Below are positions 3,641 to 30,272 of a DNA stretch of 34,582 nucleotides, piece by piece. Below the pieces are notes generated by a model that did not search any database, was not told where the DNA came from, and saw only the letters and a list, made by a program, of their open reading frames with translations. The translations under genes were made by a program, and so were the position numbers. Origin of the DNA: Candidatus Deferrimicrobiaceae bacterium. Its GTDB lineage: Bacteria; Chloroflexota; Limnocylindria; Limnocylindrales; CSP1-4. Numbering within the stretch: the stretch's first letter is position 1; each line of letters begins with the position of its first letter. Location of the stretch: positions 1 to 34,582 of the forward strand of contig DATHRO010000085.1 of the NCBI GenBank assembly GCA_035465135.1, written 5' to 3'.

Positions 3641-4348
3641 CTACGGCTGGCCCTCCAGCATCCCGAGTCGAACGGCGTACCGCATCAGTTGCGCCCGGCT
3701 GTGGAGGTTCAACTTGTCCATGATGTGGCCGCGGTGCGTCTGGACCGTGTTGATGCTCAGCTCCAGCTCGTCGGCAATCTCCTGGTTGGAACGGCCCTCG
3801 CCGATCAGCGACAGGACCTCCCGCTCGCGGGCAGTCAGCTTCTCGTAGCTGCCGCGTTCCTCGCCCGTGCTGACGCGATCGAGGTACTCCTCGACCAGCC
3901 GCTTCGCGAGCGGCGGATGGAGGTACACGCCACCGCGGTGGACCGCCCGCACGGCAGCCACCAGCTCGGTGGCGGCCGCGTCCTTGGCCAGGAAGCCGTG
4001 GGCGCCGGCCTCGAGCACGCGGAAGAAGTAGTCCTCAGTGTCGTGGACGGTGATCACGAGCACGCGGATGGCAGGGTTGGCGGCCGCGATGCGACGAGTC
4101 GCCGTGAGCCCATCGAGCTCCTTCATCCCGATGTCCATCAGGACCACGTCGGGCCGCTGCCGGAGCGCGCACTCCACGGCCTCACGCCCGGTCGATGCCT
4201 CACCGATGACCTCGCAATCGCCCTGCGACGCGAGCAGCGCCCGCAGCCCCTCCCGAACGAGCGTGTGGTCGTCGGCGATGAGCACCCGAATGCGGTTCAC
4301 GGCCTTCTCGCTCCGGCCCTCCTGCGCATCCCGGCCCACCTCAGGCAT
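3641..4348 (-). CDS. NarL/LuxR-family response regulator (REC + HTH_LuxR)
   Basis: REC domain: RVLIADDHTLVREGL...PDVVLMDIGMKELDG...VLVITVHD. C-terminal HTH: LTAREREVLSLIGEGRSNQEIADELELSINTVQTHRGHIMDKL. The start ATG overlaps the kinase stop (ATGCCTGA at 4341-4348). Confidence 0.9.
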   Translation of the reverse strand: MPEVGRDAQEGRSEKAVNRIRVLIADDHTLVREGLRALLASQGDCEVIGEASTGREAVECALRQRPDVVLMDIGMKELDGLTATRRIAAANPAIRVLVITVHDTEDYFFRVLEAGAHGFLAKDAAATELVAAVRAVHRGGVYLHPPLAKRLVEEYLDRVSTGEERGSYEKLTAREREVLSLIGEGRSNQEIADELELSINTVQTHRGHIMDKLNLHSRAQLMRYAVRLGMLEGQP

Positions 4349-6173
4349 ACGGCAGGCGGGCCCGGATCCGCGTCCCGCCGCCAGCGCGTGACTCGACCGT
4401 CAGTGTGCCCCCGAAGAGCTCGGCGCGCTCGCGCATGCCAAGCAGCCCCAGGCCGCGGCCGCTCTGGTCCGGCTCGGGCAGGGCGTCCGGCTCGAAGCCG
4501 GCTCCATCGTCTTCCACGAGCGCGACCATGTCGGAGGCCCGGAACTCGAGCCGGATCCGCACGTGACGGGCGGCAGCGTGCCTGGCCGCGTTGCTGACGG
4601 CCTCCTGGACGATGCGGAAGATTGCGGTCGCCTCCGATCCGGTCGCCCGGCGCTCGTCACCGACGACCCGGAGGGCGACATCGATGCCCAGCGGCCGCAG
4701 GTGGTCGTCGGCGTAGGCGCGGACCGCGGCCCCAAGTCCGAGGTCGTCGAGCGCGCTCGGTCGGAGATCGACGATCGCCTTGCGGATCTCACGCAGGGCC
4801 ATCTCCAACTGGGTTCGGCTCCGGACCAGCGCGGCTCGCGCCTCGATCGAGCGTTCCGGAAGGCCATCCTCGGCGGCCTTGAGGGTCATGAGCACGGCGG
4901 TGAGGGTCTGGGCCGAATCGTCGTGGAGGTCGCGGGCCAATCGCTTCCGCTCCTCCTCCTGAGCCGTGATCGTCTTGGCGAGGAGCTGGCGGCGGATGCG
5001 GTTCAGAGCATCCAGCTGGCGGTTCCGCTCCTCGGCCTCTCGCGTCCGCTCCAGGACGCGGCTCTCGAGCTCCTCCGCCCACCGGGCTCTCTCGTCGAGC
5101 GACGCCTTGAGCCTGACCCGCATGTCGTCGAAGCGCTGGCCGAGTTCGCCGATCTCGTCATCACGCGGAACGACGATGGGCTGGTCAAGCTCCCCCGAGG
5201 CCATCCGCGCTGCGTCCGTCGAGAGGCGGCGGATCGGTCGCACGACGCTGTTTGCGTGGAGCCACGCGCCGCCGCTCGCGAGCAGCAGCGCGGCGAAGCC
5301 GTAGATCAGCAGGGTCCGCTGCATGTCGCTCGGGATCGCGAGCGCCTCGTCCTCGGTCTGCTCGATGACGATCCCGCCGGGCAGCGTCGCGAAGGGATAG
5401 AAGGCGACCACGTGGTCCGAGAAGTCGTCGAAGCGGTGAATCGCGGTTCCACCCCGCGACGATGCGATCAGCGGGGCGAGGATCGCGACGTGCTCGGTCT
5501 CGGGCTCCCCGTCATGGCTGCCCGCCGCCGCGATGACGACGCCCGACGAGTCGACCACCTGTGACTGGACGGAGCTGGACGTCTCGACAACGGGCAGGAG
5601 GTGGTCGCCGAGGCGAGCCGCGAGGATCTCGCCGGCCAGGGTGCCGACCCGCTCGCCGCTGCCATCGGCGAGCGGCACCAGGACCACCACGAACGGAGGG
5701 TTGGCCAGTCCGTCCCCGGCGGGGGCGATGACGCTCGTCGACGGGCGATCCAGCGCCGCGAGCACCGCCGCGTCGGAGGCGAGCGGCCAGGGCGCCGTGG
5801 ACGAGCCGCCGGGCGCAACCCAGATGACGTGCGCGGCGGCATCGAGAGCCACGATCTGATCGAACTCGTCGATCAGCTCGAAGAGCTCATCTCCCAGCGC
5901 TGCCGCGTTCGCGTCCCCTGACTGACCGGCGATCGACGCCACGGCCTCCAGCTGTCGGGCGGCGTGGTCGACCAGGTCGTCCATCGACAGCGCCGTCAGC
6001 TGGGCCAGGCGAAGGCGCTCGTCGAGCGCAACCTGCGTGCTGAGCTCGATCGTCCTGACCACGAGCAAGCCGAAGATCGAGAAGAGCACGACCAGCCCGA
6101 TCAGGACGCCCCCGGCGATCCGGTCCCGCAAGCTCAGGCGGCGAAGCAGTCCTGCTCGAGGTCCCTCTGTCAC
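4341..6173 (-). CDS. Sensor histidine kinase: TM, ~260-aa extracytoplasmic domain, TM, HAMP, HisKA_3, HATPase_c
   Basis: Two hydrophobic segments (IAGGVLIGLVVLFSIFGLLVV and LLIYGFAALLLASGGAWL). HAMP-like RPIRRLSTDAARMASGELDQPI. H-box RLARDLHDDSAQTL (HisKA_3 type). ATPase G-boxes DDGAGF and GRGLGLLGMRERAELFGG. GTG start at 6173. Confidence 0.85.
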   Translation of the reverse strand: MTEGPRAGLLRRLSLRDRIAGGVLIGLVVLFSIFGLLVVRTIELSTQVALDERLRLAQLTALSMDDLVDHAARQLEAVASIAGQSGDANAAALGDELFELIDEFDQIVALDAAAHVIWVAPGGSSTAPWPLASDAAVLAALDRPSTSVIAPAGDGLANPPFVVVLVPLADGSGERVGTLAGEILAARLGDHLLPVVETSSSVQSQVVDSSGVVIAAAGSHDGEPETEHVAILAPLIASSRGGTAIHRFDDFSDHVVAFYPFATLPGGIVIEQTEDEALAIPSDMQRTLLIYGFAALLLASGGAWLHANSVVRPIRRLSTDAARMASGELDQPIVVPRDDEIGELGQRFDDMRVRLKASLDERARWAEELESRVLERTREAEERNRQLDALNRIRRQLLAKTITAQEEERKRLARDLHDDSAQTLTAVLMTLKAAEDGLPERSIEARAALVRSRTQLEMALREIRKAIVDLRPSALDDLGLGAAVRAYADDHLRPLGIDVALRVVGDERRATGSEATAIFRIVQEAVSNAARHAAARHVRIRLEFRASDMVALVEDDGAGFEPDALPEPDQSGRGLGLLGMRERAELFGGTLTVESRAGGGTRIRARLPYA

Positions 6174-6246
6174 GCGCGTCGCGCCCCAACGTCAGCAACC
6201 GCTCGGTTGCCGCGAGTGTGCGCGCCGGCCGCGTCCACGGACAAGT

Positions 6247-6285
6247 CTGCCCTCCCGTCGCGCCATGAATCGGACGGGAGGGCAG
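6247..6285 (-). terminator. Strong GC hairpin (13-bp perfect stem, 13-nt loop) 18 nt after the EB_dh-like gene stop; candidate intrinsic terminator or attenuator between the redox operon and the kinase gene
   Basis: CTGCCCTCCCGTC (6247-6259) and GACGGGAGGGCAG (6273-6285) are exact reverse complements. On the minus strand only a weak U-containing tail (ACUUGU) follows, as is often described for high-GC genomes. Confidence 0.45.
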
Positions 6286-6303
6286 CGAACACGGTCCCCT
6301 CGA

Positions 6304-7209
6304 CTAGTCCAGGTGGACCTCGATCCAGCCCTGGTTCGAGCTCTGGACGTGGCCGTCATCGTCCCAGCCATCCGCACCCTGGTCGGGGTCCCAGTAGGCG
6401 AGGGCCAGGTGGAGCTCCCCGCCAGCGGTGAACTGGCCATCCTGCTCGTCGCCGGTCTGAAGCGGCCGGCGGAGCTCGAAGATCCAGGTGCCCGCCGAGC
6501 CCGCGGTCGGGCTCGTGTGGTTCCAGACACCGAGAATTGAGTTCTCGGCCCCGGTGGCGTTGTCATCCTCGCGCTCGTCGGGCTTCGTCGCCCACTCGTC
6601 ATCGAGGTTGCAGGCTTCATCGTTGCCGGAACCGCTGCTGACGCCCGACGCCGCGGCGCCACCGCCGCTCTGATCGCCGGCCGCGCAGTCGAGCTCCCAG
6701 TGCCACAGGTCGACCATGCCGAGGCTGGTTTCCCGATCCGGTTCGTCGGCGCCCATGTGCTCGCCGGCTCCCGGATCGATCTCCCACATCACGGCTGCCG
6801 AGCCGGAGCGGTGCGGGTCGCCGTCGACCCAGTCGTAGTCATCCTCGACCTCGAAGAGCACGTACAGGAACTGGTCGTCGTAGGCGACCCTGATGTGCGC
6901 GTCCTTCGACTCGACCCCCTCGCCCATGATCGCCTCGAGCGTGAGATCGAGGCCCTCGATGGCCGCCCAGTCCGTGGGGTCGCCGTCAACGTCGATGGTC
7001 GCCTCGGCGGCCTCCACGATCCGAGCGTCGCCGTGCCCATCCTCGGTGGGCATCGCGGTCGGCTCGGGCGTCTCGAGGACGGTCATCTCCGGGGTCGGCT
7101 GCGGCGTCGTGACCGCCGTCGGCTCGGGTGATGCGCCGCCCGAGCAGGCCGCAGCGGCTAGCGCGAGGGCTGCTACCCAGGCGAGCAGCTTGGGTGTCGA
7201 TCTGTTCAC
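6304..7209 (-). CDS. Secreted lipoprotein with EB_dh (ethylbenzene-dehydrogenase gamma-subunit-like) / DOMON-like putative haem-binding domain
   Basis: GTG at 7209 sits 6 nt after GAGGAG. Signal peptide plus lipobox-like LALAAAACSG, then a P/T/E-rich linker. The domain pattern is DGDPTDWAAIEGL...IRVAYDDQFLYVLFEV.D...GEHMG...MVDLWHWE...LALAYWD...GWIEVHL. The longer 485-aa ORF in the track would overlap the cytochrome c gene. Confidence 0.6.
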   Translation of the reverse strand: MNRSTPKLLAWVAALALAAAACSGGASPEPTAVTTPQPTPEMTVLETPEPTAMPTEDGHGDARIVEAAEATIDVDGDPTDWAAIEGLDLTLEAIMGEGVESKDAHIRVAYDDQFLYVLFEVEDDYDWVDGDPHRSGSAAVMWEIDPGAGEHMGADEPDRETSLGMVDLWHWELDCAAGDQSGGGAAASGVSSGSGNDEACNLDDEWATKPDEREDDNATGAENSILGVWNHTSPTAGSAGTWIFELRRPLQTGDEQDGQFTAGGELHLALAYWDPDQGADGWDDDGHVQSSNQGWIEVHLD

Positions 7210-7238
7210 GTCGGTCTCCTCATGCTCCCGTCCATTGG

Positions 7239-7691
7239 TCAACCACCGGTATCGGGCCGGGCCAGTGACTCGAGGTAGCGAAAGATGGCTTCGAGGTCCT
7301 CGTCGCCTACAACCTGCGGGTCGAAGGCGGGCATGCCGCCCGGCCCGCGGCGTATGTCGCTGCGAAGGCCTCCCAGTCCGAGCTCCTCCGGGTCGAGCGC
7401 CGGCCCGACGACCCCGCCTTCGCCGCGCAGCCCATGGCAGGTGGCGCAGCCGAAGCCGAAGAACAAGAAGCGGCCCCGATTCGCCGGGTCCGCCACCGGC
7501 GCCGGTTCCGCCAGCCCGACACCGGTGAACGTGCTGTCGAGGCCGACGTACGAGATCGGCGTCCGGTCGAAGCCCTCGGGCCGGACGTTGGCGTGCGTCT
7601 CCGGGCTCCGAGCGACGATGCCCCAGATGAGGACGACCGCCAGCCCGCTGATCGTCGCGGCCAGGACCGCTGGAATGAAGTACCGGCTCAT
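7239..7691 (-). CDS. Membrane-anchored mono-haem class I cytochrome c
   Basis: N-terminal TM segment IPAVLAATISGLAVVLIWGIV. One CxxCH site (CATCH), with the downstream Met-ligand context RRGPGGMPAF. The start overlaps the upstream gene stop (ATGA at 7688-7691). Confidence 0.8.
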   Translation of the reverse strand: MSRYFIPAVLAATISGLAVVLIWGIVARSPETHANVRPEGFDRTPISYVGLDSTFTGVGLAEPAPVADPANRGRFLFFGFGCATCHGLRGEGGVVGPALDPEELGLGGLRSDIRRGPGGMPAFDPQVVGDEDLEAIFRYLESLARPDTGG

Positions 7692-8284
7692 CCGCCTCGC
7701 CTGGATGCCTCGCGGACTGGCTCGCCGCCAGCGCGCGCGATGCGAATGAGAACGACCGCAACGCCGAGGAGGATGGTCCAGACGATCGTCAGGATCGCCA
7801 TCAGCAGGCCGACGTTCAGGCCAGGGATCGACAGGCCCGGGTCGGCGATGAAGAGCTGGGCATCGCCGGCGACCTCGACCGAGATCGTGGCGATCTCAGG
7901 CTCCGACTCGTTCGGCAGGAGGTACTCCACCCGGATGTCGTGGTGGCCGGTGACGCGCGGCCGATAGGCCAGCGTCGCGACGCCGGCATCGTCGGTGACC
8001 GCGGTCGCCACCTCGACCTCGCCGGAGACGCCCGCGAACGTCGCGTCGAGGTAGAACGTCACCGGCGTGCGGGCGAGCGGCGAGCCGTCGGCCGAGCTCA
8101 GCGCGACCGGGATGTTGGTCACCGTGCCGACCTCGAGCGTGCCCGGGACGCCGATCCTGACCGTCACATGGCTGGCGCCGACGGGCCCCGCGAGGACGAG
8201 GCTCATGACGGCCAGGGCGACGGTCGTTATCGCCCATGCTGCGAGTCGCTTCGTGCCCACCATCGAACGTGTCCCTCCTGTCAT
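7688..8284 (-). CDS. Unknown exported protein: signal peptide, all-beta (Ig-like) domain, C-terminal TM anchor
   Basis: Signal peptide KRLAAWAITTVALAVMSLVLAGPVGAS followed by HVTVRIGVPG. The middle region is beta-rich with V/T alternation. C-terminal TM segment VGLLMAILTIVWTILLGVAVVLI followed by a basic tail. ATGA overlaps at both ends (8281-8284 and 7688-7691). Confidence 0.5.
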   Translation of the reverse strand: MTGGTRSMVGTKRLAAWAITTVALAVMSLVLAGPVGASHVTVRIGVPGTLEVGTVTNIPVALSSADGSPLARTPVTFYLDATFAGVSGEVEVATAVTDDAGVATLAYRPRVTGHHDIRVEYLLPNESEPEIATISVEVAGDAQLFIADPGLSIPGLNVGLLMAILTIVWTILLGVAVVLIRIARAGGEPVREASRRGG

Positions 8285-9624
8285 CCCTCTGCCGGTGATG
8301 GCGCCGGCAGCGTCTCCGGCGGCGACTCAGCGGCCTCGAAGTCCTCGGCGATCTCCCAGACGGCGAGGATCGGGAAGAGCTTGGTGAAGATCGTGATGAG
8401 GAGCGCGAACAGCGCGAGCCCAGCCGCGAGCATCGACCACTCCACCCACGTCGGGGCGTAGGCGGACGGGTCGTAGGGCATCAACGGCACGCGCAGCCCG
8501 CTGACGACGATCACGTAGCGCTCGATCCACATCGCCACCGTGACGAGGCCGGCGGCCACGATCGCGCCGCGGGCATTGCGGGTCCAGGGCAGGAGCACGG
8601 TCACGATCGGCGCGACCAGACCGCCGAGGAGGTAGAACCAGTACAGCGGGCCGAACTGGTTGAGGAAGAGTTGCCGGAAGTGGAACTCGACCCCCTCCTC
8701 CATCTTGTAGCCGTGCGTCATCAGCTCCGAGATGTTGGCGTAGAGCATGATCGCGGCGAAGGCCGCCATCAGGTAGCCGAGGTACACGAAGTGCGTGTCA
8801 GTCACGTACCTCCCGAGCCTGTAGGCGCGCCGGAGGACGGCCATCACGAGGATCAGGATCGCGATGCCGGAGAAGATCGCGCCGGCCACGAAGAAGGCGC
8901 CGAAGAGCGTGCTGTTCCACGGCACCCGGAGCGTCATCCCGAAGATCCATGAGACGACGGTGTGGACGGACACCGCGATCGGGATGATCAGGATCATCAG
9001 CACGCCGATCGCCCGGGCGAGGGAGCGCTTCTGCCCGTCGCTGCCCACCCAGCCGATGGCCAGGACGCGGTAGAGCCCGCTGCGCCAGCGCGACGACGAG
9101 CCGGCCAGCCGATCCCGGAACAACGCGAGGTCCGGGATCATCGGCACGAACAGATAGGTGATGCTCGCGGTCAGATACGTCGTGATCGCGAGGACGTCCC
9201 AGATGATCGGCGACTGCCAGCGGCCGTAGATCACGACGTTGAGCAGCCGGTCGGGACGGCCCAGATCGATGATCACGTAGGAGGCCCCGCAGACCAGGGC
9301 GACGACCGTGATGAACTCGGCCATCCTGGTCACCGGCGTCCGCCAGCGAGCGTTCGAGACACGCAGGATCGCGGAGATCAACGTTCCGGCGTGGCTGATG
9401 CCGATGAAGAACACGAAGGTGGCGATGTAGAGGCCCCAAGAAATCCGGTCGCGCATGCCGGTCACGACGAGCCCGTCACGGAGCTGGGTGAAGTACGCGT
9501 AGGCGCCCCAGGCGATGATCGCGAGCAGGATCGCGACGACCAGCCAGAAGCGGCGCGACGTCCGGCGAACCGGCGCGACCGCGGTTTCGACGAGGCGTTC
9601 GCGTTCGCGGCTCAGCGCGTCCAC
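8281..9624 (-). CDS. NrfD/PsrC-family polytopic membrane subunit (quinone-interacting)
   Basis: Multi-TM protein with the typical N-terminal FWLVVAILLAIIAWGAYAYFTQLRDGLVVTGMRDRISWGLYIATFVFFIGISHAGTLISAILRV. I chose GTG 9624 because GGAG lies 7 nt upstream. The track start (GTG 9660) has no SD and overlaps the FeS gene by 49 nt; either start is possible. Confidence 0.85.
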   Translation of the reverse strand: MDALSRERERLVETAVAPVRRTSRRFWLVVAILLAIIAWGAYAYFTQLRDGLVVTGMRDRISWGLYIATFVFFIGISHAGTLISAILRVSNARWRTPVTRMAEFITVVALVCGASYVIIDLGRPDRLLNVVIYGRWQSPIIWDVLAITTYLTASITYLFVPMIPDLALFRDRLAGSSSRWRSGLYRVLAIGWVGSDGQKRSLARAIGVLMILIIPIAVSVHTVVSWIFGMTLRVPWNSTLFGAFFVAGAIFSGIAILILVMAVLRRAYRLGRYVTDTHFVYLGYLMAAFAAIMLYANISELMTHGYKMEEGVEFHFRQLFLNQFGPLYWFYLLGGLVAPIVTVLLPWTRNARGAIVAAGLVTVAMWIERYVIVVSGLRVPLMPYDPSAYAPTWVEWSMLAAGLALFALLITIFTKLFPILAVWEIAEDFEAAESPPETLPAPSPAEG

Positions 9625-10559
9625 GGGATCGCTCCGTCGACGTCCACCTGCCACGGCCACTCGGTCGGCAGGCGCCCGGCTGCATAGACGTCTCGACCGA
9701 CGGCCTCGCCATGACCCGCGATGTAGTAGACGCGCGGGTTCGTGCCCAGGTCGCTCTTCAGCTGGTAGGCCTGGTTGTCGGACATGAACCGCGAGGCCGA
9801 AACGACGACCTCGCCGTTCGTCGCCAGATCCTCTTCAAGATCGCCGTACAAGATCGCGCCGTGGGGGCAGCCCTGGACGCAGTACGGCAGCGTCGCCGCT
9901 CGGGCCATGTCAGGGCAGAAGTCGCATTTCATCACCGTCCCCCGCTTCGCCGGGACCTGGTGCTCGGCGGAGTACTCGGCGAGGCCGGCCTCCTCCGGGA
10001 TCGGGGGGTCGCCCCAGTTGAAGAAGCGGCGGTCGTAGGGGCAGGCGGCCATGCAGATTCGGCAACCGATGCAGCGCTCCTGGTCGATCAGCACGGTGCC
10101 CTCCGGCGCGGAGAACGTCGCCCCGACGGGGCAGACGTTGACGCACGGCGGGTTCTGGCACTGCTGGCAGGGCGTCGGGATGAACTGCGTGCCGCCACCG
10201 GGCAGCTCGGACTCGAAGACCTGGATCCACTCCATCGGCTCGGGCGCGAAGTGGCCCTCGATGCAGGCGGCGGTGCATCGAGGCGCGGAGCCGACGCTCT
10301 GGCAACCGTCGCACAGCCGGAGGTCGATGATCATCGTCCACTGGCGGACCCGGCCGTCCGGAGTCAGCGCCGGCTGCTGACCCGGAGGTATCGCCGCTCT
10401 CTCGCTCGTCAGCGATTCCAGAACCCGCGGGAGGACCGGCACGGGCGCCAGGGAGGCGGCACCAAGACCGATGACGCGGAGCATCGTGCGGCGCCCGATC
10501 GTCGGACCGGACTGCGGCGTCGCCTGGGCTGTCGCCTCTTCTGGCCGGAATCGTGGCAT
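9612..10559 (-). CDS. Tat-exported 4x[4Fe-4S] ferredoxin-type subunit (NrfC/PsrB/DmsB/ActB2-like)
   Basis: ATG 10559 follows GAAGG. The twin-arginine signal IGRRTMLRVIGLGAASLA lies at residues ~21-38. Four Cys groups: CDGCQS...C...C, CQQCQNPPC...CP, CIGCRIC..ACP, CDFC...C..CP. Confidence 0.85.
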   Translation of the reverse strand: MPRFRPEEATAQATPQSGPTIGRRTMLRVIGLGAASLAPVPVLPRVLESLTSERAAIPPGQQPALTPDGRVRQWTMIIDLRLCDGCQSVGSAPRCTAACIEGHFAPEPMEWIQVFESELPGGGTQFIPTPCQQCQNPPCVNVCPVGATFSAPEGTVLIDQERCIGCRICMAACPYDRRFFNWGDPPIPEEAGLAEYSAEHQVPAKRGTVMKCDFCPDMARAATLPYCVQGCPHGAILYGDLEEDLATNGEVVVSASRFMSDNQAYQLKSDLGTNPRVYYIAGHGEAVGRDVYAAGRLPTEWPWQVDVDGAIPWTR

Positions 10560-10614
10560 GCGCACCTTCGCTGCGAGCCTTCGCCCGCCCATCGTCGCGG
10601 CGGAGCGTCGGCCT

Positions 10615-10673
10615 ACGCATCCCCCGAGGAGGTCATGCGTCGATCGGACTTCGGCGAAACGCACTAGTGCGTT
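10615..10673. promoter_or_regulatory. Two inverted-repeat operator candidates sharing an ACGCA(Y) half-site in the divergent FeS-operon/DinB promoter region
   Basis: There is a perfect 16-bp palindrome AACGCACTAGTGCGTT at 10658-10673. ACGCAT (10615-10620)-N14-ATGCGT (10635-10640) forms a second inverted repeat. The palindrome is 99 nt upstream of the FeS-gene ATG and 81 nt upstream of the DinB ATG. Confidence 0.5.
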
Positions 10674-10753
10674 CCAGCGATGCCAGTCGGGCCCCCCGGC
10701 GAGGTCCAGAGGGCAGCCTCGAACGACTGTGGCCGCCGCCGCCCGGAGCGGTC

Positions 10754-11314
10754 ATGATGGTGACGATGACCGACTCGATCCGTCCGTTCTACGCCGACTG
10801 GCCGGGCTACAACCGTCGCCTGACCGAGGCGCTGCGCGGCCTGCCCGCCGCGGACCTCGGGCTGCGGGTTCCCGGCTCCGACCACTGGCCGATCTGGGCG
10901 ATCGCCGGCCACTTGGCCGGGACGCGCGTCTACTGGCTGTGCGAGGTCGTCGGCGAGCCGGGCGCGGACGACACGCCGTTCACCGACGTGGCCAACACCG
11001 GTTGGGAGGACGACCTCTCGCACCCGCGTTCGGGCGCCGAGCTGGAGTCAGCGCTCACCTCGACCTGGCGGATCGTCGAGGGCTGCCTCGAGCGCTGGAC
11101 ACCGGAGATGCTCGGCGAAAGCGTCGCTCGCCAGCGGGGCGCGACGCGGCAGGTCCATACGCGCCAGTCGATCCTATTGCGCCTGATCCACCACGAGGCG
11201 TACCACGTAGGCGAGATCAGCCTCGTCCTCGGCGCCCACGGGCGCGAGCCAATCAACCTCTGGCCGCCGGCCGACTGGGCCGCGGATGCACCGCGCGCGC
11301 TGCGCGAGGGTTGA
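10754..11314 (+). CDS. DinB/DinB_2 superfamily (four-helix-bundle metal-binding) protein
   Basis: ATG 10754 follows GGAG. The spacing of WPIWAIAGHLAG and LIHHEAYHVGEI is typical of the His-triad DinB fold. Confidence 0.75.
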   Translation: MMVTMTDSIRPFYADWPGYNRRLTEALRGLPAADLGLRVPGSDHWPIWAIAGHLAGTRVYWLCEVVGEPGADDTPFTDVANTGWEDDLSHPRSGAELESALTSTWRIVEGCLERWTPEMLGESVARQRGATRQVHTRQSILLRLIHHEAYHVGEISLVLGAHGREPINLWPPADWAADAPRALREG

Positions 11315-12011: not shown

Positions 12012-12869
12012 TCAGCCCGACGAAGCTCGAAGGATCACGCCGCCGACGCATCCTGGCCCGATATGTGGGCCGATCGTCAGCCCGATCGGACAGACGACCA
12101 CCTTCGATGCGTCGATCTCGCCGGGCATCCTCGCCAAGAGCTCGTCCCGGAAAGCCTCGCCATCGGCGGGCGGGCTGTAGAGGATCGCAAGTCGCTCGAC
12201 CGGTGCGCCGGTCAGGTACCGGAGGACGCGCTGCCGAGCGGCACGTCGGGTCGGAACCCGGTCGAGAATCGCGACCTGGCCGTCCGAGACGGTGATGACC
12301 GGCTTCACCGCGAGCAGCGCCCCGATCCGCGCGGCCGCCCCGGAGATCCGGCCTCCTCGGCGAAGGTATTCCAGTGTGTCGAGGGCCGCGTACAGCTCGA
12401 CGTCGGCCGCACGCCGGGCGAGCACGCGAGCGATCTCGGCGGCCGAGACGCCGAGGGCTGCCATCTCGGCACCGAGGATCGTCAACAGCCCGGTCGCCAT
12501 CGAGGCCGTCCCGCTGTCGACGACATGAATCTCGCGGTCCGGATAGAGCTCGGCCGCAACGCGCGCCGAATCGAACGTCGCCGACATTCGCGCGCTCATC
12601 TGGACCGAGACGATGGCCTCGGCGCCCGCATTGAACGCCGCCTCGTACGCGTCCTTGAACGCGCCGGGTGAGGGCGGCGCCGTGATCGGAAACGGCGCGT
12701 CCCGACCGCGCATCCGGTCCCAGAAGGCGTCCGTCGCAAGGTCGATTCCGGCCTGGTACGTGTCCGCGCCGAAGGTCACGACGCTCGGGACGACGAAGAT
12801 CCCGAGCGCCTCGGCCAGCTCGGGCGTCAGATCCGCAGCCGTGCTCGTGACGATGGCAGCAGTGACCAT
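12012..12869 (-). CDS. DegV family fatty-acid-binding protein
   Basis: ATG 12869 follows GGAGGGAGG. Motifs seen: IVTSTAADL, T.PPSPGAF..AYE, IVSVQMSARMSATFDSA, VVDSGTASMATG and LEYLRRGGRIS. Confidence 0.85.
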   Translation of the reverse strand: MVTAAIVTSTAADLTPELAEALGIFVVPSVVTFGADTYQAGIDLATDAFWDRMRGRDAPFPITAPPSPGAFKDAYEAAFNAGAEAIVSVQMSARMSATFDSARVAAELYPDREIHVVDSGTASMATGLLTILGAEMAALGVSAAEIARVLARRAADVELYAALDTLEYLRRGGRISGAAARIGALLAVKPVITVSDGQVAILDRVPTRRAARQRVLRYLTGAPVERLAILYSPPADGEAFRDELLARMPGEIDASKVVVCPIGLTIGPHIGPGCVGGVILRASSG

Positions 12870-12957
12870 CCGCTGGCCTCCCTCCAGTCCCCCGGCCATT
12901 CTTGCACGCCCGGCGCGCGGCGGACCGTATCCGGCGCCCGTTTCGTATCCTGATCCG

Positions 12958-13974
12958 GTGACGCTGCGGGTCGGGCTCTTCGGCGCCGGCAACATCTTCG
13001 AGCGCGGCTACCTGCCGGCCCTCGTCGAGACCGAGGCCGTCCGGGTCATGGCGGTCTGCGACCTCGACGCGGAGCGAGCGGCCCGAGCCGCCGACCGCCT
13101 CGACGGGGCCGTCGCGCTGTCGACCGACGAGGAGCTGCTGGCCTACCCGAATCTCGACGCCGTGTTCGTGCTGACGCCGCCGGATAGCCACGCCGCGCTG
13201 ACGATCGCCGCGCTGGAGTCGGGACGCGACGTCCTGTGCGAGAAGCCGATGGCCAGGTCCGGCGACGACGCTCGCCGGATGGCCGCGACCGCCGAACGGA
13301 CGGGTCGCCGCCTGATGGTCGGCCACACCCGCCACTTCGACGATCGCTGGACCGCGATGCACGACCAGATCGCGGCCGGCCGTGTCGGCGAGCCCGTCTA
13401 CGCCTACCGCTCCGAGCACGCCTACAACGGCGCACCGGAGGGCTCGTGGATCTGGCAGGGCGAGATCAGCGGCGGCGTCCTGTGGGACGTCGGGGTCCAC
13501 GTCGCCGAGCTGTTCCGGTGGTTCATGGGCGAGATGCCGCAAACGGCCTTCGCGAAGGTCATCAACAGCCGACCAGAGGCCCGCGCTGGCGGCGCGCCGG
13601 ACGCCGCGGTGGCGACGTTCACGTTCGGGCCGAATCGCCACGCGCTCATGAGCGTGTCGTGGCTGCACCCGCCGGCCTGGGGCCCGTTCTACGCCACGAC
13701 CGAGGTCGTCGGGACCACCGGCCGGATCGAGGCCTACGATCGCGAGAGCAACCCGGCCAGCATCGTGGGGTCCGGGCTGGAGATCCCACGGACCTCGCCA
13801 CTGCTGTCGGCGATCTCAACCGCGTTCCGGCGCGAGATCGAGCACTTCGCCGAGGCGATCGAGACCGGGGCCCCGTTTGCGGTCACGGTGGACGACGCCA
13901 TCGGGGCCATCGACATGATCGAGGCGGCCGACCGCTCCGTTCGCAGCGGCCGGCCGGAGGCGGTACGACGGTGA
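12958..13974 (+). CDS. Gfo/Idh/MocA family NAD(P)-dependent oxidoreductase
   Basis: N-terminal Rossmann RVGLFGAGNIFERGYLPAL plus the LCEKPMA motif. The start is uncertain: GTG 12958 is in frame but has no clear SD. Confidence 0.75.
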   Translation: MTLRVGLFGAGNIFERGYLPALVETEAVRVMAVCDLDAERAARAADRLDGAVALSTDEELLAYPNLDAVFVLTPPDSHAALTIAALESGRDVLCEKPMARSGDDARRMAATAERTGRRLMVGHTRHFDDRWTAMHDQIAAGRVGEPVYAYRSEHAYNGAPEGSWIWQGEISGGVLWDVGVHVAELFRWFMGEMPQTAFAKVINSRPEARAGGAPDAAVATFTFGPNRHALMSVSWLHPPAWGPFYATTEVVGTTGRIEAYDRESNPASIVGSGLEIPRTSPLLSAISTAFRREIEHFAEAIETGAPFAVTVDDAIGAIDMIEAADRSVRSGRPEAVRR

Positions 13975-14972
13975 GCGCCAGGATCCGGCTCGGCATCGTC
14001 GGCTTCGACCATCCTCACGTCCTGCGGTTCGCGCCGATGCTGGCCGCCGACCCGCGGGTCGAGCTGGCCTGGATCTCCGAGGACGGGCCGAACCGGGCGG
14101 CCGCGGCGGCGATGGCTGAGCGCCTTGGCGTGCCGCTCGTCGAGGAACCGGCCACCGACGTCGATGCGGCCTACCTCGCGATCCGGCCGGGACGCCACCT
14201 CGAGATCGTTCGGCACCTCGCGCCGGACGGCGTCCACCTGCTGGTCGACAAGCCGATTGCGCTGACCGCCGAGGACGGTCGCGCGATCGTCGAGGAGGCC
14301 GGGCGGGTGGGCGTTCGCCTGATGGTCCCGTTCAACCCGCGCGGCCAGGTCGGGCCGCGGCTGGTGAAGGACCGGATCGATCGGGGCGAGCTCGGCGAGA
14401 TTCGCCTCGTCCACGTCGTTAAGGTCGGCAAGGTCCCGCTGACCATCCCCGGCATCGATGCGTCGTGGCTGACCGACCCGGCCGAGGCCGGGTTCGGCGG
14501 CTTCGGCGACATCGGCATGCACGCCGTCGACGCACTGCGCTGGCTGATCGGAGCGGAGCCGCAACGCGTCTACGCCCGGATCCATCGCGGCGTCCGGCCG
14601 GCCCTGCCGGTCGACAGCATCGGGACGGCGACGATCGAATGGGCCGGCGGCGCGATCTCGACGCTCACCGCGGGCTGGGCCAACCCGGACGGCTACCCGT
14701 CGTTCCTCGACGCTCGCTTCGAGGTCGTCGGCAGCCTTGCCGCGGCTCGCGTCGACCACGCCTACCAGGAGATCCGGATCGCCGACATGGCTCGCTCCGA
14801 GCGCCTCGCCGCAACGCGCACGGACGCCGCCTGGAACCTCGATGCGTTCATCGACGCGGTCAGGTTCGACCGGCCGCCGCCGATCAGCGGCGAGGACGGC
14901 CTGCGGGCGCTCGAGCTGATGCTCGCCTGCTACCGCTCGGCGGCCCTCGGCGAGGAGGTCGTGCTGGCCTGA
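13971..14972 (+). CDS. Gfo/Idh/MocA-like oxidoreductase (divergent N-terminal nucleotide-binding motif)
   Basis: The GTG start overlaps the upstream stop (GTGA at 13971-13974). Motifs seen: IRLGIVGFDHPHV and LLVDKPIALT. The C-terminal alpha/beta domain is similar in layout to its neighbour. Confidence 0.7.
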   Translation: MSARIRLGIVGFDHPHVLRFAPMLAADPRVELAWISEDGPNRAAAAAMAERLGVPLVEEPATDVDAAYLAIRPGRHLEIVRHLAPDGVHLLVDKPIALTAEDGRAIVEEAGRVGVRLMVPFNPRGQVGPRLVKDRIDRGELGEIRLVHVVKVGKVPLTIPGIDASWLTDPAEAGFGGFGDIGMHAVDALRWLIGAEPQRVYARIHRGVRPALPVDSIGTATIEWAGGAISTLTAGWANPDGYPSFLDARFEVVGSLAAARVDHAYQEIRIADMARSERLAATRTDAAWNLDAFIDAVRFDRPPPISGEDGLRALELMLACYRSAALGEEVVLA

Positions 14973-16965: not shown

Positions 16966-18216
16966 ATGTCGCAGCGCCATCGATCCGGCCTGCCCTTCGC
17001 GATGGCCGTCGTCCTCGCGCTCGCGGCACTGCCGTTCCTCGCCAGCCGGCCCGCCGCGGCGGCGGGGACCGACCATGTCACGAACTGCCGGATCAACCTC
17101 CGAGGCGGACCCTCGACCTCGACCGCGCTCGTCGCCACGCTGCCGAAGGACAGCGTGGTGTCGGTCTCCGCAACCGTGAGCGGCGGAGCCTGGACGACGC
17201 ACTGCGGCACGAGCGTCGCGGGGGCGACGTGGTTCAAGGTCGTCGCGATCGACGGCCGCAGCGTCGCGTCGCGCTACGGGACCAGCATCCTCTACGCGGC
17301 CACGGGCCTGTTCCACCCAGCCCCAGCGCCGACGCCGGATTACCGGTCGAACTGTGGCGTCAACCTTCGGGCCACGGCCTCGACCGGCGCATGGATCAGG
17401 GGCGTCGTGGCCAGGAATGCCGTCGTGACCGCGGCGGCGACCGTCAGCGGCGGGCGCTGGCGAGCCGACTGCGGCAGGAGCGTCAGCGGCAGTCGCTGGC
17501 TCAAGATCGTCGCGATCAATGGCCGCAGCGTGCATTCGCTGTACGGCGTGAGCGCCGTCTACGCCGCACGGGGTCTCTTCACGTCCATCCCGCTGACCGG
17601 CTACCTCGAGGGGATCGACGTCTCCAACTGGCAGGGCCGGATCGACTGGGCCCGGGTCAGGGCCGCCGGCGTGCGCTTCGCAATCGCCAAGGCGAGTGAG
17701 GGGGTCGGCTACGAGGACCGGAGCTACGACCGTAACCGGGCCGGCGCGCTGGCCCAGGGCATCGCGTTCGGGGCGTACCACTTCGCCCGGCCGGAGAACA
17801 ACCCGATCAAGGAGGCCGACTGGTTCATCGAGGTCGCGAGCTACCGGCGCGGCATGATCATCCCGACGCTCGATCTCGAGCGAACCGGGGGCCGGAACCC
17901 GACGGGCCTGGCGAACTGGACGAAGGCCTGGCTGACGCGGGTCCACGAGCGGCTTGGCGTGCGGGCCATGATCTACGTCAGCCCGTCGTTCTGGCGCCAG
18001 AATCTTGTCAACACCGAGTGGTTCGCCCGGCACGGCTACCACGTCGTCTGGATCGCCCACTGGCGCGCCACGAACCCGAAGGTGCCGGCCTCGAGCTGGA
18101 ACGGCCGGTCGTGGACCTTCTGGCAGTACTCGACCACCGGCAGCGTGCCGGGCATCTCCGGCCCCGTCGATCTGAACCGCTACCGCTACGCCGGGCTCGC
18201 CGCCGTTCTCTACTGA
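16966..18216 (+). CDS. GH25 muramidase (lysozyme) with two N-terminal SH3b-like repeats
   Basis: Signal peptide with AAA cleavage site. The catalytic domain shows GIDVSNWQG.IDW..V...GV.FAIAKASEG..Y.D, AYHFARP and WTFWQYS..G.VPGI.G.VDLN. Confidence 0.8.
   Translation: MSQRHRSGLPFAMAVVLALAALPFLASRPAAAAGTDHVTNCRINLRGGPSTSTALVATLPKDSVVSVSATVSGGAWTTHCGTSVAGATWFKVVAIDGRSVASRYGTSILYAATGLFHPAPAPTPDYRSNCGVNLRATASTGAWIRGVVARNAVVTAAATVSGGRWRADCGRSVSGSRWLKIVAINGRSVHSLYGVSAVYAARGLFTSIPLTGYLEGIDVSNWQGRIDWARVRAAGVRFAIAKASEGVGYEDRSYDRNRAGALAQGIAFGAYHFARPENNPIKEADWFIEVASYRRGMIIPTLDLERTGGRNPTGLANWTKAWLTRVHERLGVRAMIYVSPSFWRQNLVNTEWFARHGYHVVWIAHWRATNPKVPASSWNGRSWTFWQYSTTGSVPGISGPVDLNRYRYAGLAAVLY
17083..17580 (+). 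repeat. Intragenic tandem duplication: two 77-aa modules (each with two Cys) in the GH25 N-terminus
   Basis: By hand alignment, NCRINLRGGPSTS...GGAWTTHCGTSVAGATWFKVVAIDGRSV...YAATGLF and NCGVNLRATASTG...GGRWRADCGRSVSGSRWLKIVAINGRSV...YAARGLF are identical at about half of the aligned positions. Confidence 0.6.
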
Positions 18217-18243
18217 GTCGCCCGTCGCGGCTACGATGCGCCG

Positions 18244-18957
18244 ATGACGGGCGGCACCGCTCGCTTGATGGCCATCGTGCCGGCCCACGACGAGGCGCCG
18301 CGGATCGGCCCTGTGGTCGCCGGAGCGGCCCGCTACCTACCGGTCCTCGTCGTCGACGACGGCTCGACGGATGCCACGCCCGAGGTCGCCGCGGCGTCCG
18401 GAGCCAGGGTCCTCGAGCAGCGCCCGAACCGCGGTAAGGGGGCCGCGCTGCGGGCCGGATTCAGTGAGGCTCTGCGGTCCGGGGCCGAGGCGGTCGTGAC
18501 GCTGGACGGCGACGGACAGCATGATCCGGCCGAGATCCCGGCGTTCCTCGCGGCCCATGCCGATCGCACCGCCGCCGGCCTGCCGAGCGCGCTGATCATC
18601 GGCCGGCGCGACTTCGCCCGGATGCCGATCGCCCGCCGCATCGCCAACACCCTCGGCACGATCGTCCTGTCGCTGGCCCTCGGTCGCCACATCCCGGACA
18701 ACCAGTCGGGCTATCGGCTCGTCGGCCGGAAGCTGATGGCCGCGACCCTCGACAGCGCCGAGGCCGGCTTCGCGTTCGAGGTCGAGATGATCGCGATCTG
18801 CCTCCGCGAGCGTTGGCCGATCGCCTGGGTCCCGATCCGCACGATCTACGCCGACGAACGCAGCCACATGCGGCCGTTTGCCCACCTGCGCGAGTTCCTG
18901 GCGATTGCCCGCCGGGCGCGCCGGATCGCTCGCTCGCCGAGGACGGAATCCCGCTAG
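18244..18957 (+). CDS. Family 2 glycosyltransferase (polyprenol-phosphate glycosyltransferase-like, soluble domain only)
   Basis: Motifs seen: AIVPAHDEA, VVDDGSTD, NRGKGAAL, LDGDGQHDP and NQSGYR. Confidence 0.8.
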   Translation: MTGGTARLMAIVPAHDEAPRIGPVVAGAARYLPVLVVDDGSTDATPEVAAASGARVLEQRPNRGKGAALRAGFSEALRSGAEAVVTLDGDGQHDPAEIPAFLAAHADRTAAGLPSALIIGRRDFARMPIARRIANTLGTIVLSLALGRHIPDNQSGYRLVGRKLMAATLDSAEAGFAFEVEMIAICLRERWPIAWVPIRTIYADERSHMRPFAHLREFLAIARRARRIARSPRTESR

Positions 18958-21380: not shown

Positions 21381-21427
21381 GGTCGCGGGCTGGACCTCGA
21401 GCTGGGCTGGCCGCATCCCCCGGCGGC

Positions 21428-21466
21428 GCGGACACCACCCTAGGCCACGGCCGTCCGCGGACACCA
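21428..21466. repeat. 10-bp direct repeat GCGGACACCA x2 (29 nt start-to-start) just upstream of the amidase gene
   Basis: Copies at 21428-21437 and 21457-21466 are exact. On the amidase (minus) strand they read TGGTGTCCGC, 48-86 nt upstream of ATG 21380. If ATG 21416 is the true start, the copies lie 12-50 nt upstream instead. Confidence 0.25.
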
Positions 21467-21519
21467 TAGCGAAGCGGGCCTAGCGCGACCCGGGACTTCT
21501 GCGCCCAGGTGCGCCGCGC

Positions 21520-23824: not shown

Positions 23825-23872
23825 CGTGGGCCTCCGATCAGCGGGCATTCGCCGCATGTCTTTGACGACGCA

Positions 23873-23878
23873 ACTATA
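23873..23878 (-). promoter_or_regulatory. Possible -10 hexamer TATAGT (minus strand) for the VOC gene
   Basis: This is a rare AT-rich hexamer about 49 nt upstream of ATG 23824 in the divergent VOC/pntAA spacer. I saw no convincing -35. Confidence 0.25.
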
Positions 23879-23978
23879 TGCCATGTGCGGCGGGTCTCGC
23901 CGCTTCCAGCGATCGCCCGCGCGCCCGCGTATCCTTCGACGGAACCCACTGCGACAGTCACGACATCAGGTGGTGCCC

Positions 23979-25130
23979 ATGAAGATCGGAGTCGCCAGGG
24001 AGACGGCTCCCGGCGAGCGGCGCGTCGCGCTGGTCCCCGACGCGCTCGGCAAGCTCACCGCGGCCGGCCTCGAGGTGCTCGTGGAGACCGGCGCCGGGGT
24101 GGGCGCGCTGATCCCCGACGGACAGTACGAGGCGGCCGGGGCGAAGGTCGTGGACGTCAAGACCCTGTACGCCGAATCGGACCTCATCGTCCGGGTCCAG
24201 AAGCCAAGCGGCGACGAGGTCAAGAAGCTGCGGTCTGGGCAGGCGCTCGTCGGGCTGCTCCAGCCGCTGCTCGACCCCGGCCTGATGGCCGACCTCGCCA
24301 AGGCCGGCGTCACCGCGATCAGCCTCGACGCGATCCCCCGCACCCTGTCGCGGGCGCAGTCGATGGACGTCCTGTCGTCGCAGGCCAACGTCGGCGGCTA
24401 CAAGGCCGTCGTGATGGCCGCCGAGGCGTTCGGTCGGTACTTCCCGCTCCTCACGACGGCCGCCGGAACGGCCAAGCCGGCCAACGTCCTGATCCTGGGC
24501 ATCGGCGTCGCCGGCCTCCAGGCCATCGGGACCGCTCGCCGCCTCGGCGCCGTCGTGAAGGCGTACGACGTGCGGCCCGAGACGAAGGAGCAGGCCGAGT
24601 CCCTCGGCGCCCAGTTCGTGAAGCTCAAGACCCAGATCGATGCGACGGGCGCCGGCGGGTACGCGCGCGAGCTGACGCCCGAGGAGCGGGCCGCCCAGCA
24701 AGCCGAGCTCAACGAGGTCATCGGGACGATGGACGTCGTGATCACCACGGCCCAGGTTCCGGGCCGCAAGCCGCCGGTCCTCGTGACCGCCGATGCCGTG
24801 GCCAAGATGAAGCCCGGATCGGTCATCCTCGACATGGCAGCGTCCGCCCTCGGCGGCAACTGCGAGCTGTCGAAGGCTGGCGAGACGGTCGTGACCGACA
24901 ACCTCGTGACGATCCTCGCGCCGGAGAACCTGCCGGCCACGATGCCGGTCGGCGCCTCGCAGTTCTACGCCCGCAACCTGTCGGCCCTGCTGCTCCAGCT
25001 GCTGAAGGATGGCGCGCTGGACCTCGACCCGGAGGACGAGATCGCCGGGCCGGTCACGATCACCCACGGCGGCGAGATCCGATCCGACGCCGTCAAGAAG
25101 CTGCTCGACCCGGCCGGAGGTGCCGCGTGA
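23979..25130 (+). CDS. pntAA: NAD(P) transhydrogenase subunit alpha part 1 (dI, NAD(H)-binding)
   Basis: Motifs seen: MKIGVARETAPGERRVALVP, DAIPRTLSRAQSMDVLSSQANVGGYKAV and VLILGIGVAGLQAIGTARRLGA. Confidence 0.9.
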   Translation: MKIGVARETAPGERRVALVPDALGKLTAAGLEVLVETGAGVGALIPDGQYEAAGAKVVDVKTLYAESDLIVRVQKPSGDEVKKLRSGQALVGLLQPLLDPGLMADLAKAGVTAISLDAIPRTLSRAQSMDVLSSQANVGGYKAVVMAAEAFGRYFPLLTTAAGTAKPANVLILGIGVAGLQAIGTARRLGAVVKAYDVRPETKEQAESLGAQFVKLKTQIDATGAGGYARELTPEERAAQQAELNEVIGTMDVVITTAQVPGRKPPVLVTADAVAKMKPGSVILDMAASALGGNCELSKAGETVVTDNLVTILAPENLPATMPVGASQFYARNLSALLLQLLKDGALDLDPEDEIAGPVTITHGGEIRSDAVKKLLDPAGGAA

Positions 25131-30271: not shown

Positions 30272-30272
30272 G

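Follow-up and report, generated by a model that had tools for sequence, protein, structure and literature searches.

A conserved, undescribed small respiratory gene cluster of Chloroflexota and Acidimicrobiia

Complexes built around membrane proteins of the NrfD family are central to anaerobic and alternative respiratory chains, and their mode of energy conservation is still debated. NrfCD and SirCD, whose NrfD proteins have eight helices, are encoded with the multihaem reductases NrfA and SirA. QrcABCD acts as a cytochrome c3:menaquinone oxidoreductase, and the alternative complex III (ACIII) of Chloroflexus reduces the cupredoxin auracyanin. The family includes ACIII, QrcABCD, NhcABCD and DsrMKJOP (PMC8076601), and SirCD of Shewanella is a general, stand-alone quinol dehydrogenase that can replace CymA for several acceptors (PMC11434368). 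Here we analyse a 34,582-nucleotide stretch of contig DATHRO010000085.1 (assembly GCA_035465135.1, a member of the Limnocylindria in the GTDB lineage), referred to below as the window. Its minus strand carries, at 6304-10559, five head-to-tail, tightly packed genes for an iron–sulfur (FeS) protein, an NrfD protein, an immunoglobulin (Ig)-like protein, a cytochrome c and a lipoprotein of the EB_dh fold. Conserved in Chloroflexota and Acidimicrobiia, they make up a small respiratory cluster that has so far gone undescribed. Judging from sequence and predicted folds, we consider it fairly probable that the five genes specify a small NrfCD-type membrane quinol dehydrogenase complex that would pass electrons from quinol through the FeS protein and the cytochrome c to the EB_dh-like protein, and that has no catalytic subunit.

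The five genes and their products

The gene cluster was read from the sequence and from open reading frame (ORF) calls, in a window of ~71% G+C that its homologues assign to Chloroflexota, class Candidatus Limnocylindria. Its genes are, in order of transcription:

9612..10559, minus strand: FeS subunit of the NrfC/PsrB/DsrO/ActB2 type, exported by twin-arginine translocation (Tat), with four Cys4 cluster motifs
8281..9660, minus strand: NrfD-family integral membrane subunit with a presumed quinol/quinone site (Pfam PF03916)
7688..8263, minus strand: Ig/macroglobulin-like single-pass membrane subunit (helix, beta-sandwich and C-terminal transmembrane helix)
7239..7691, minus strand: membrane-anchored monohaem class I cytochrome c (CATCH, GGMPAF)
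6304..7209, minus strand: EB_dh/DOMON-fold lipoprotein with a GTG start (Pfam PF09459, lipobox Cys22)

An earlier note on this DNA, made from the letters alone, had described five translationally coupled genes on one strand, and all five are present at these places on the minus strand. Most of the junctions it named can be read in the sequence. The FeS and NrfD genes overlap for either NrfD start: GTG 9624 is a possible alternative that gives a protein of 447 amino acids (aa), as long as P0001 and P0002, its nearest relatives. The FeS gene itself has alternative starts at ATG 10595 and GTG 10664. The ATGA overlap at 7688-7691 is likewise there, as is the 29-nucleotide (nt) gap with GAGGAG before the last gene, the GAGGAG standing 6 nt ahead of the start codon GTG 7209. 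The second ATGA junction that had been proposed, at 8281-8284, is less likely than a start of the Ig-like gene at ATG 8263 or GTG 8260. AGGAGGG lies ~8 nt upstream of ATG 8263, the first ~9 residues of the ORF counted from 8284 are missing in aligned homologues, and the public gene call for this protein is 190 aa long.

Profile searches, which the earlier note had proposed as a check, were run against Pfam and supported the domain identities of the FeS, NrfD, cytochrome c and EB_dh proteins. The NrfD protein matches PF03916 with E 3.7e-36 (125.8 bits against a cut-off of 25.8) and has ~10 transmembrane helices, as judged by a hydropathy scan and by full-length alignment to the ten-helix ActC. 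Its best solved relative is ActC (6f0k_C, E 2e-58, residues 32-438); the ActC chains 8k9e_C, 6btm_C and 6lod_C are also matched, which makes four organisms in all, and ActF is matched weakly. No match to PsrC was returned by the PDB sequence search at E 1e-3. A PsrC-type polysulfide reductase anchor was ruled out on this absence, as against 2e-58 for ActC, and on the lack of a molybdopterin gene. Among NCBIfam models, DsrP scores 145.5 bits (cut-off 350) and QrcD 61 bits (cut-off 570).

The quinone site of ActC involves Ser164, Asp169, His139 and Asp253, and DsrP, QrcD and NhcC carry an aspartate at the position of His139 (PMC8076601). We mapped these residues onto the sequence alignment of NrfD with ActC. 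Ser150 of the window NrfD corresponds to Ser164, Asp155 to Asp169 and Asp132 to His139, and all three are invariant in 23 homologues. Members of the family are recognized by a Pfam NrfD score above the gathering cut-off, with 8-10 transmembrane helices and no cofactor-binding motifs. A further mark is a serine at the entry of the quinone pocket with an acidic residue or histidine in helix 2 (Calisto & Pereira 2021). The window protein combines a Pfam score above cut-off and ~10 helices with Ser150 and Asp132 at the quinone-site positions.

The FeS protein is 315-327 aa long and contains only Fer4 domains in Pfam (Fer4_11, E 2e-17). It carries the twin-arginine motif GRRTML, and an RR motif is found in its homologues too. 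Sixteen cysteines are arranged as CxxCx8CxxxC, CxxCx4CxxxCP, CxxCxxCxxxCP and CxxCx11CxxxCP, enough for four predicted cubane [4Fe-4S] clusters. The best NCBIfam match is DsrO with 163.6 bits (cut-off 200), and QrcC reaches 128 bits (cut-off 400). In the PDB, the sequence matches PsrB (2vpw_B), ArrB (6cz7_B) and the C-terminal half of ActB (6f0k_B).

The cytochrome c is assigned by Pfam to Cytochrome_CBB3 (E 1.2e-10, 42 bits against a cut-off of 27) and to Cytochrom_C (E 4e-6), and its PDB matches are CcoP and domains of actinobacterial QcrC. The CATCH motif and the distal methionine of GGMPAF place it in class I, one N-terminal transmembrane helix is predicted, and CxxCH together with G.MP is found in 70 of 78 homologues of this core cytochrome. 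The Ig-like protein has an N-terminal signal or anchor helix, an external beta-sandwich and a C-terminal transmembrane helix. It belongs to no described family: no Pfam or NCBIfam family scored above cut-off (Big_1 and Big_3_5 were sub-threshold only), and a single-sequence PDB search gave nothing significant. Its AlphaFold2 (AF2) model, with a predicted local distance difference test score (pLDDT) of 78, shows a beta-sandwich flanked by two helices, for which Foldseek returned only generic macroglobulin (MG), CARDB and Ig folds. The alignment contains no conserved Cys/His/Met pattern, and with only generic Foldseek matches a cofactor site or the fold of a known subunit was rejected. With 308 clusters at 50% identity in a set of 1.84 billion representative proteins, this is a small family.

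The EB_dh-like protein consists of a lipobox cysteine (Cys22), a Pro/Thr-rich tether and a beta-sandwich, and scores 49.7 bits for Pfam PF09459 (EB_dh; cut-off 33.3) and 17 bits for the NCBIfam model DMSO_red_II_gam (cut-off 170). A single-sequence PDB search gave nothing significant, and a profile search reached only NxrC. Foldseek with the AF2 model (pLDDT 75) returned NxrC (7b04_C, 2e-10) and EbdC (2ivf_C, 3e-9), followed by CBM9. In NxrC, the axial ligands of haem b are Met155 and Lys305 (PMC8387239). In alignments of the EB_dh-like proteins, Met152 and His287 are invariant in 39 sequences and in 25 of 26 sequences; Met152, in an HMG motif, aligns with the methionine of canonical gamma subunits (RMG or CMG). 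The protein probably binds one haem b via Met152 and His287 and is a probable accessory electron carrier. Dehalococcoidia loci L002 (12449-13564) and L021 have, as fifth gene, a more canonical EB_dh domain (129 bits) with the motif GCAALCH (CX3CH), the histidine of which aligns with His151 of the window protein; this suggests a covalently bound haem in the EB_dh fold of those two loci.

A fixed core with exchangeable carriers

An alignment scan with the window NrfD against GTDB release 232, in which each species is represented by one genome, returned 538 stretches encoding a relative. The locus counts given here refer to the best 80 of these 538 stretches, each with up to 10 kb of flank on either side; loci were searched by tblastn, and genes were then called and labelled by iterated profile searches. 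NrfD identity to the window protein is 57-82% in these 80 loci, of which 38 belong to Chloroflexota (Limnocylindria, Dehalococcoidia, Anaerolineae), 36 to Acidimicrobiia or other Actinomycetota and 6 to bins otherwise labelled. Most are from Limnocylindria of soil and freshwater, from Dehalococcoidia or from sediment Acidimicrobiia.

The order FeS–NrfD–Ig–cytochrome c is found in practically every locus on a long enough contig, in Chloroflexota and Acidimicrobiia alike. Where at least 3.5 kb is available downstream of NrfD, the Ig-like gene is present in 50 of 54 loci and the cytochrome gene in 51 of 54. The arrangement is not chance, since it recurs in dozens of genomes from two phyla. This survey of relatives had been suggested in the earlier note, and the four-gene order does recur without a molybdopterin gene in the same transcription unit. 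The five-gene unit described there stands for the core of FeS, NrfD, Ig-like and cytochrome c genes but not for the EB_dh-like gene as a fixed member: among the loci visible on both sides it occurs in only 19 of 39, where it follows the cytochrome gene or immediately precedes the FeS gene. It looks as though the four-gene core is fixed and the terminal carrier exchangeable between lineages.

The partnership within the core is most direct in fused genes. In 30 of the 36 Actinomycetota loci the Ig-like protein and the cytochrome c are a single polypeptide of ~335 aa, and such fusions occur in 35 loci in all. Their topology places the Ig domain outside, followed by a transmembrane helix, a short cytoplasmic loop, a second transmembrane helix and the cytochrome domain, again outside. 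These fusions are strong evidence that both proteins work together physically, and the Ig-like protein most likely has a structural role, keeping the cytochrome attached to the complex. In-frame fusions of cytochrome c and EB_dh-like protein were found in seven loci (including L042) and in P0239 on three independent contigs. An apparent triple fusion of all three domains in L052 was discarded because its ORF spans a run of N, an assembly gap.

The carriers at the end of the core differ between lineages, and other redox proteins stand in for the EB_dh-like one where it is absent. In three Limnocylindrales loci without an EB_dh-like gene (L011, L014, L016), whose NrfD proteins are ~80% identical to that of the window, a sulfocyanin-like cupredoxin is encoded just upstream of the FeS gene. 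In Acidimicrobiia from sediment, the genes directly after the core encode proteins built from 3-8 class I cytochrome c domains in tandem, each domain with one CxxCH. These poly-cytochromes are found at L035:12671-14398, L038:2707-5460 and 12810-14492, L044:12543-14258, L078:3689-5191 and L031:7605-8807. Ten-haem c7/MtrC-like cytochromes (for example L045:14553-16790) and NapC-like cytochromes (L026:5246-6835) often lie near the poly-cytochrome loci. Together, the poly-cytochromes, c7/MtrC-like and NapC-like proteins could form an electron-export chain, and the poly-cytochrome variants hint at how Acidimicrobiia might export electrons.

Other neighbours recur without being part of the core. A split cytochrome b is encoded just upstream of the module at L031:481-3266, and also in L038 and L044; its N-terminal half has 227 aa, and its C-terminal half is fused to a seven-CxxCH cytochrome (701 aa), forming an unusual bc-type complex. 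Cytochrome c maturation genes adjoin the module in several loci, either as CcdA-ResB-CcsA-ResA or as CcmF-CcmH-TPR. Three neighbour clusters considered as oxidase subunits (c36, c37, c23) were rejected, being CcmF, CcmH and the TPR protein. A coiled-coil protein paired with a TIG-domain protein is a further recurrent neighbour. A HmuY-like lipoprotein (PF14064) adjoins EB_dh-like genes in both phyla, also where the EB_dh-like gene stands alone, for example at L001:13634-14272 and L004:9028-9705 and, as cluster c10, in L024, L049, L056, L067 and L079. This neighbour hints at a link with haem handling.

The absence of a catalytic gene, already observed in the earlier note, extends to the whole window: in Pfam scans of ~30 ORFs across it, no protein of the molybdopterin or multihaem type was found. 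In the 80 loci, the neighbourhood of the module contains no recurrent large ORF. A molybdoenzyme is encoded nearby in only two of them, L056 and L028, both times on the opposite strand and thus in a separate transcription unit; in L028 it lies 3 kb upstream. L056, from Chloroflexi bacterium RBG_16_64_32, carries at 4313-11144 a complete type II dimethyl sulfoxide (DMSO)-reductase/Nxr-like operon convergent to the module. Its alpha subunit (928 aa) is truncated by the contig end, the beta subunit has 413 aa, and a delta chaperone and a canonical EB_dh gamma subunit whose C terminus bears a transmembrane helix make up the rest, so that in this genome a gamma subunit of the canonical kind coexists with the divergent EB_dh-like lipoprotein. 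Apart from that separate operon, the alpha and beta subunits of type II DMSO reductases are missing from the window and the related loci, as had been noted for the window.

Two general statements of the earlier note need narrowing. It had set the locus against characterised FeS/NrfD pairs wired to a molybdopterin or multihaem catalytic partner; the pair indeed has no such partner in the window, but the statement is too strong as context, as modules wired only to electron-transfer cytochromes are known. Its orphan reading stands for the missing molybdopterin partner in the window but not throughout the family, given that some Acidimicrobiia relatives encode multihaem partners beside the module. 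Its view that the system had not been described agrees with our searches: neither the NrfD-family review nor literature searches on the gene combination, on the respiratory chains of Limnocylindria or Acidimicrobiia and on stand-alone EB_dh/DOMON haem proteins returned a description of it.

Proposed electron path and competing explanations

In the mechanism we propose, menaquinol would bind NrfD near the outer face of the membrane and be oxidised there. Electrons would pass to the four predicted [4Fe-4S] clusters of the Tat-exported subunit sitting on NrfD, then to the haem of the membrane-anchored cytochrome c, and from there to the lipid-tethered EB_dh-fold protein with its putative haem b at Met152/His287. 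The latter would serve as the exit to an acceptor, which may be a terminal oxidase, an extracytoplasmic reductase or a substrate. According to transmembrane prediction and the lipobox, every extracytoplasmic part is anchored: the FeS protein on NrfD, the cytochrome and the Ig-like protein by helices and the EB_dh-like protein by lipid. Such anchoring fits cells without a closed periplasm, as assumed for these lineages; the Chloroflexota hosts are probably single-membrane organisms. We favour the quinol-oxidising direction because the potentials of class I Met/His cytochromes c, cupredoxins and EB_dh-type haems normally lie far above that of menaquinone.

Alternatively, the same complex might run in reverse, with an extracytoplasmic donor feeding the EB_dh-like protein, cupredoxin or poly-cytochromes and the cytochrome c passing electrons on to the quinone pool, as in QrcABCD or in the reverse electron flow of lithotrophs. 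The aspartate that the window NrfD shares with QrcD, DsrP and NhcC at the ActC His139 position is compatible with this, and so are the best NCBIfam matches, DsrP and QrcD for NrfD and DsrO and QrcC for the FeS protein, but all of these remain well below their cut-offs. The Nxr-like operon beside the module in L056 and a gene for a PQQ-type GSDH dehydrogenase after the poly-cytochrome in L044, and probably in L047 (a protein of the same cluster), would also fit, but no donor-oxidising enzyme is conserved beside the module, and quinone reduction from carriers so much more positive than menaquinone would need energy input. We regard reverse flow as quite unlikely. It is also conceivable, albeit unlikely, that the four-gene core is the main quinol:cytochrome c oxidoreductase of its hosts, a third complex III that feeds an aa3/caa3 oxidase and replaces both bc1 and ACIII. 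This explanation accommodates the similarity of NrfD to ActC, its very high conservation (57-93% identity across two phyla) and the adjacent cytochrome c maturation genes, as if the cytochrome were their principal client; the cupredoxin neighbour parallels the pairing of ACIII with auracyanin. However, most loci have a dedicated two-component system beside the module, which speaks for conditional rather than housekeeping expression, no oxidase genes were seen beside the module, and bc-type cytochrome b genes lie right next to it in some Acidimicrobiia, so both coexist there. That the module is an ordinary molybdoenzyme anchor, with its catalytic subunit encoded elsewhere in the genome, is very improbable. 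Public annotation names the window protein 'NrfD/PsrC family molybdoenzyme membrane anchor subunit', the other cluster proteins being hypothetical, and our gene survey of the source genome covered the 34.6-kb window. Against this, a molybdopterin gene accompanies only 2 of the 80 loci, on the opposite strand, the conserved partners are a cytochrome c and an Ig-like protein, and the closest solved relative is ActC, with no PsrC-type match.

Several points weigh against the quinol-oxidising path proposed above. The only basis for its direction is that the Met/His class I cytochrome c and EB_dh-type haems are expected to have high potentials, and the ActC residue Asp253 is not kept in NrfD, where it is replaced by Ile239. 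The remaining points concern the last carrier. His287 (DGHVQS) is one residue off the canonical lysine position (DGMKSVS), the lysine ligand of the family is absent with no lysine conserved among the EB_dh-like proteins, and the loop after Met152 is modelled with low confidence (residues 153-163, pLDDT <50). The gene is missing from about half of the loci, and homologues with 55-70% identity occur alone in Acidimicrobiia L004 and L005, near HmuY-like genes. Such a distribution implies that the lipoprotein may have a job of its own, and it could accordingly stand outside the electron chain, either in haem capture and handling with HmuY-like proteins, which are encoded next to it in L001, L024, L056, L049, L067, L079 and L004, or as a CBM9-like binding module, CBM9 being the next-best structural match. 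We consider such a separate role rather improbable. The lipoprotein is fused in frame to cytochrome c in seven loci and P0239, its invariant residues Met152 and His287 fall on or beside the haem-ligand positions, and the structures that its model matches best are two haem b subunits, NxrC and EbdC. Moreover, its Dehalococcoidia counterpart has a covalent-haem motif, and in the window its gene starts 29 nt after the cytochrome c stop codon with a ribosome-binding site of its own.

If the quinol dehydrogenase reading is right, the cluster would be the simplest natural system in which to study quinol oxidation and possible proton movement by an ActC/DsrP-type subunit, and the EB_dh/DOMON haem fold would be used as an independent electron carrier in bacteria. 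A bolder proposal, which we advance tentatively, is that the FeS–NrfD–Ig–cytochrome c core represents an unrecognised, phylum-spanning class of minimal quinol dehydrogenases with plug-in exits (an EB_dh-fold haem b/c lipoprotein, a cupredoxin or up to eight cytochrome c domains), which might serve as a third complex III and/or as an entry to extracellular electron transfer; the EB_dh/DOMON haem protein of the window, with Met/His ligation, might then be the first outside a molybdoenzyme and a free-standing tethered carrier. The cluster occurs widely, and it probably matters to the physiology of its abundant, mostly uncultured host lineages; current annotation of their respiratory chains treats the module as a molybdoenzyme anchor.

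The surroundings of the cluster agree with the earlier note, which had placed a divergent DinB gene upstream and a HisKA_3 kinase with a LuxR-type regulator downstream; all are identified by Pfam. The features that follow the EB_dh-like gene are:

6249..6283, minus strand: GC-rich hairpin, 20-55 nt past the EB_dh-like stop codon
4341..6173, minus strand: sensor histidine kinase (Pfam HAMP, HisKA_3, HATPase_c)
3641..4348, minus strand: NarL/LuxR-type response regulator (Pfam Response_reg, GerE)

The hairpin is perfect (GCCCUCCCGUC...GACGGGAGGGC) and lies between the cluster and the kinase gene. The 136-nt spacer after the EB_dh-like gene folds with a free energy (dG) of -73.4 kcal/mol, at a z-score of -2.6 against shuffled sequences. 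A terminator scan did not call the hairpin at 6249-6283 for lack of a T-run, and promoter and terminator consensus scans found nothing in this region of 71% G+C. The hairpin may be a transcript end or a stabiliser that separates the five genes from the two-component genes. The kinase has two transmembrane helices around an extracytoplasmic domain of ~250 aa, with a weak Pfam match to dCache_1, followed by HAMP, HisKA_3 and HATPase domains; the response regulator (Response_reg, E 5e-29; GerE, E 3e-21) is 71-80% identical in close relatives, where it also lies beside the module. A HisKA_3/GerE pair is encoded within 10 kb of the module in 46 of the 80 loci, with varying position and orientation. 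The kinase is likely a regulator of the cluster, and the adjacent two-component system suggests conditional use: the NarL-type system would probably switch the cluster on in response to an external signal.

Elsewhere in the window, the stretch 28517-30965 encodes another HisKA_3 kinase, which has a GAF domain, together with a LuxR-type regulator. At 16966-21467, a gene for a family 2 glycosyltransferase is flanked by those for a GH25 muramidase (416 aa, SH3 domain) and an N-acetylmuramoyl-L-alanine amidase of 837 aa that contains Ig and fn3 domains; together they form a cell-wall remodelling cluster. Two tandem GFO/IDH/MocA oxidoreductase genes are found at 12613-14972. A proton-translocating transhydrogenase is encoded by an alpha-subunit gene at 23826-25130 (AlaDh_PNT domains) and a beta-subunit gene at 25465-26892 (PNTB).

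Comparison with known systems

ACIII (ActABCDEF[G/H]) shares several features with the cluster. NrfD is nearest to ActC, the FeS protein aligns with the C-terminal FeS half of ActB, the set includes a monohaem cytochrome c, as does ACIII with ActE, and the cupredoxin neighbour of some relatives recalls auracyanin with Chloroflexus ACIII. The minimal ACIII-like module proposed in the earlier note fits the evidence, with NrfD most similar to ActC. However, the cluster has neither the pentahaem ActA nor the molybdopterin-like ActB1 domain, in the window or in related loci, and each locus has a single NrfD, with no second one (ActF) and no ActD. At the quinone site, His139 of ActC is an aspartate and Asp253 an isoleucine, and the cluster adds an Ig-like single-pass subunit and an EB_dh-fold protein.

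With DsrJOP, QrcABCD and NhcABCD the cluster shares a periplasmic cytochrome c, a Tat-exported four-cluster protein and a ten-helix NrfD, and its NrfD carries the aspartate found in DsrP, QrcD and NhcC at the quinone-site position. DsrO/DsrP and then QrcC/QrcD are its best NCBIfam matches, but all lie far below cut-offs. Genes for DsrM, DsrK, DsrJ, the hexahaem QrcA, the molybdopterin-like QrcB and the multihaem NhcA are missing, the cytochrome is a single class I haem domain, and the hosts are Chloroflexota and Acidimicrobiia rather than sulfate reducers. A true ACIII, Dsr or Qrc complex was ruled out by these missing subunits together with the sub-threshold scores.

The EB_dh-like protein has the fold of the gamma subunits of type II DMSO reductases (EbdC, NxrC, SerC, ClrC) and keeps their methionine ligand motif. 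In contrast to these, it is encoded without alpha, beta and delta genes, its lysine ligand is replaced by an invariant histidine one position away, and it scores ~50 bits in Pfam compared with 117-129 bits for the canonical members in L056 and L002. It is also lipid-anchored through a Pro/Thr tether and fused to cytochrome c in some genomes. Complex iron–sulfur molybdoenzymes (Psr, Ttr, Dms, Arr) differ from the cluster in their molybdopterin catalytic subunit, which has no counterpart in the window and occurs in 2 of 80 loci, on the opposite strand.

In NrfCD and SirCD, as in Cbc4 and CbcSTU of Geobacter, an FeS/NrfD pair is a quinol dehydrogenase that feeds periplasmic cytochromes, and the poly-cytochrome versions of sediment Acidimicrobiia resemble such a SirCD/Cbc-type hub. 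Unlike NrfCD and SirCD, the cluster has a monohaem cytochrome c and an Ig-like subunit as its fixed partners and no reductase gene. Overall, the cluster would work like the FeS/NrfD quinone module common to ACIII, Dsr, Qrc, Nrf and molybdoenzymes, and is mechanistically close to these known modules.

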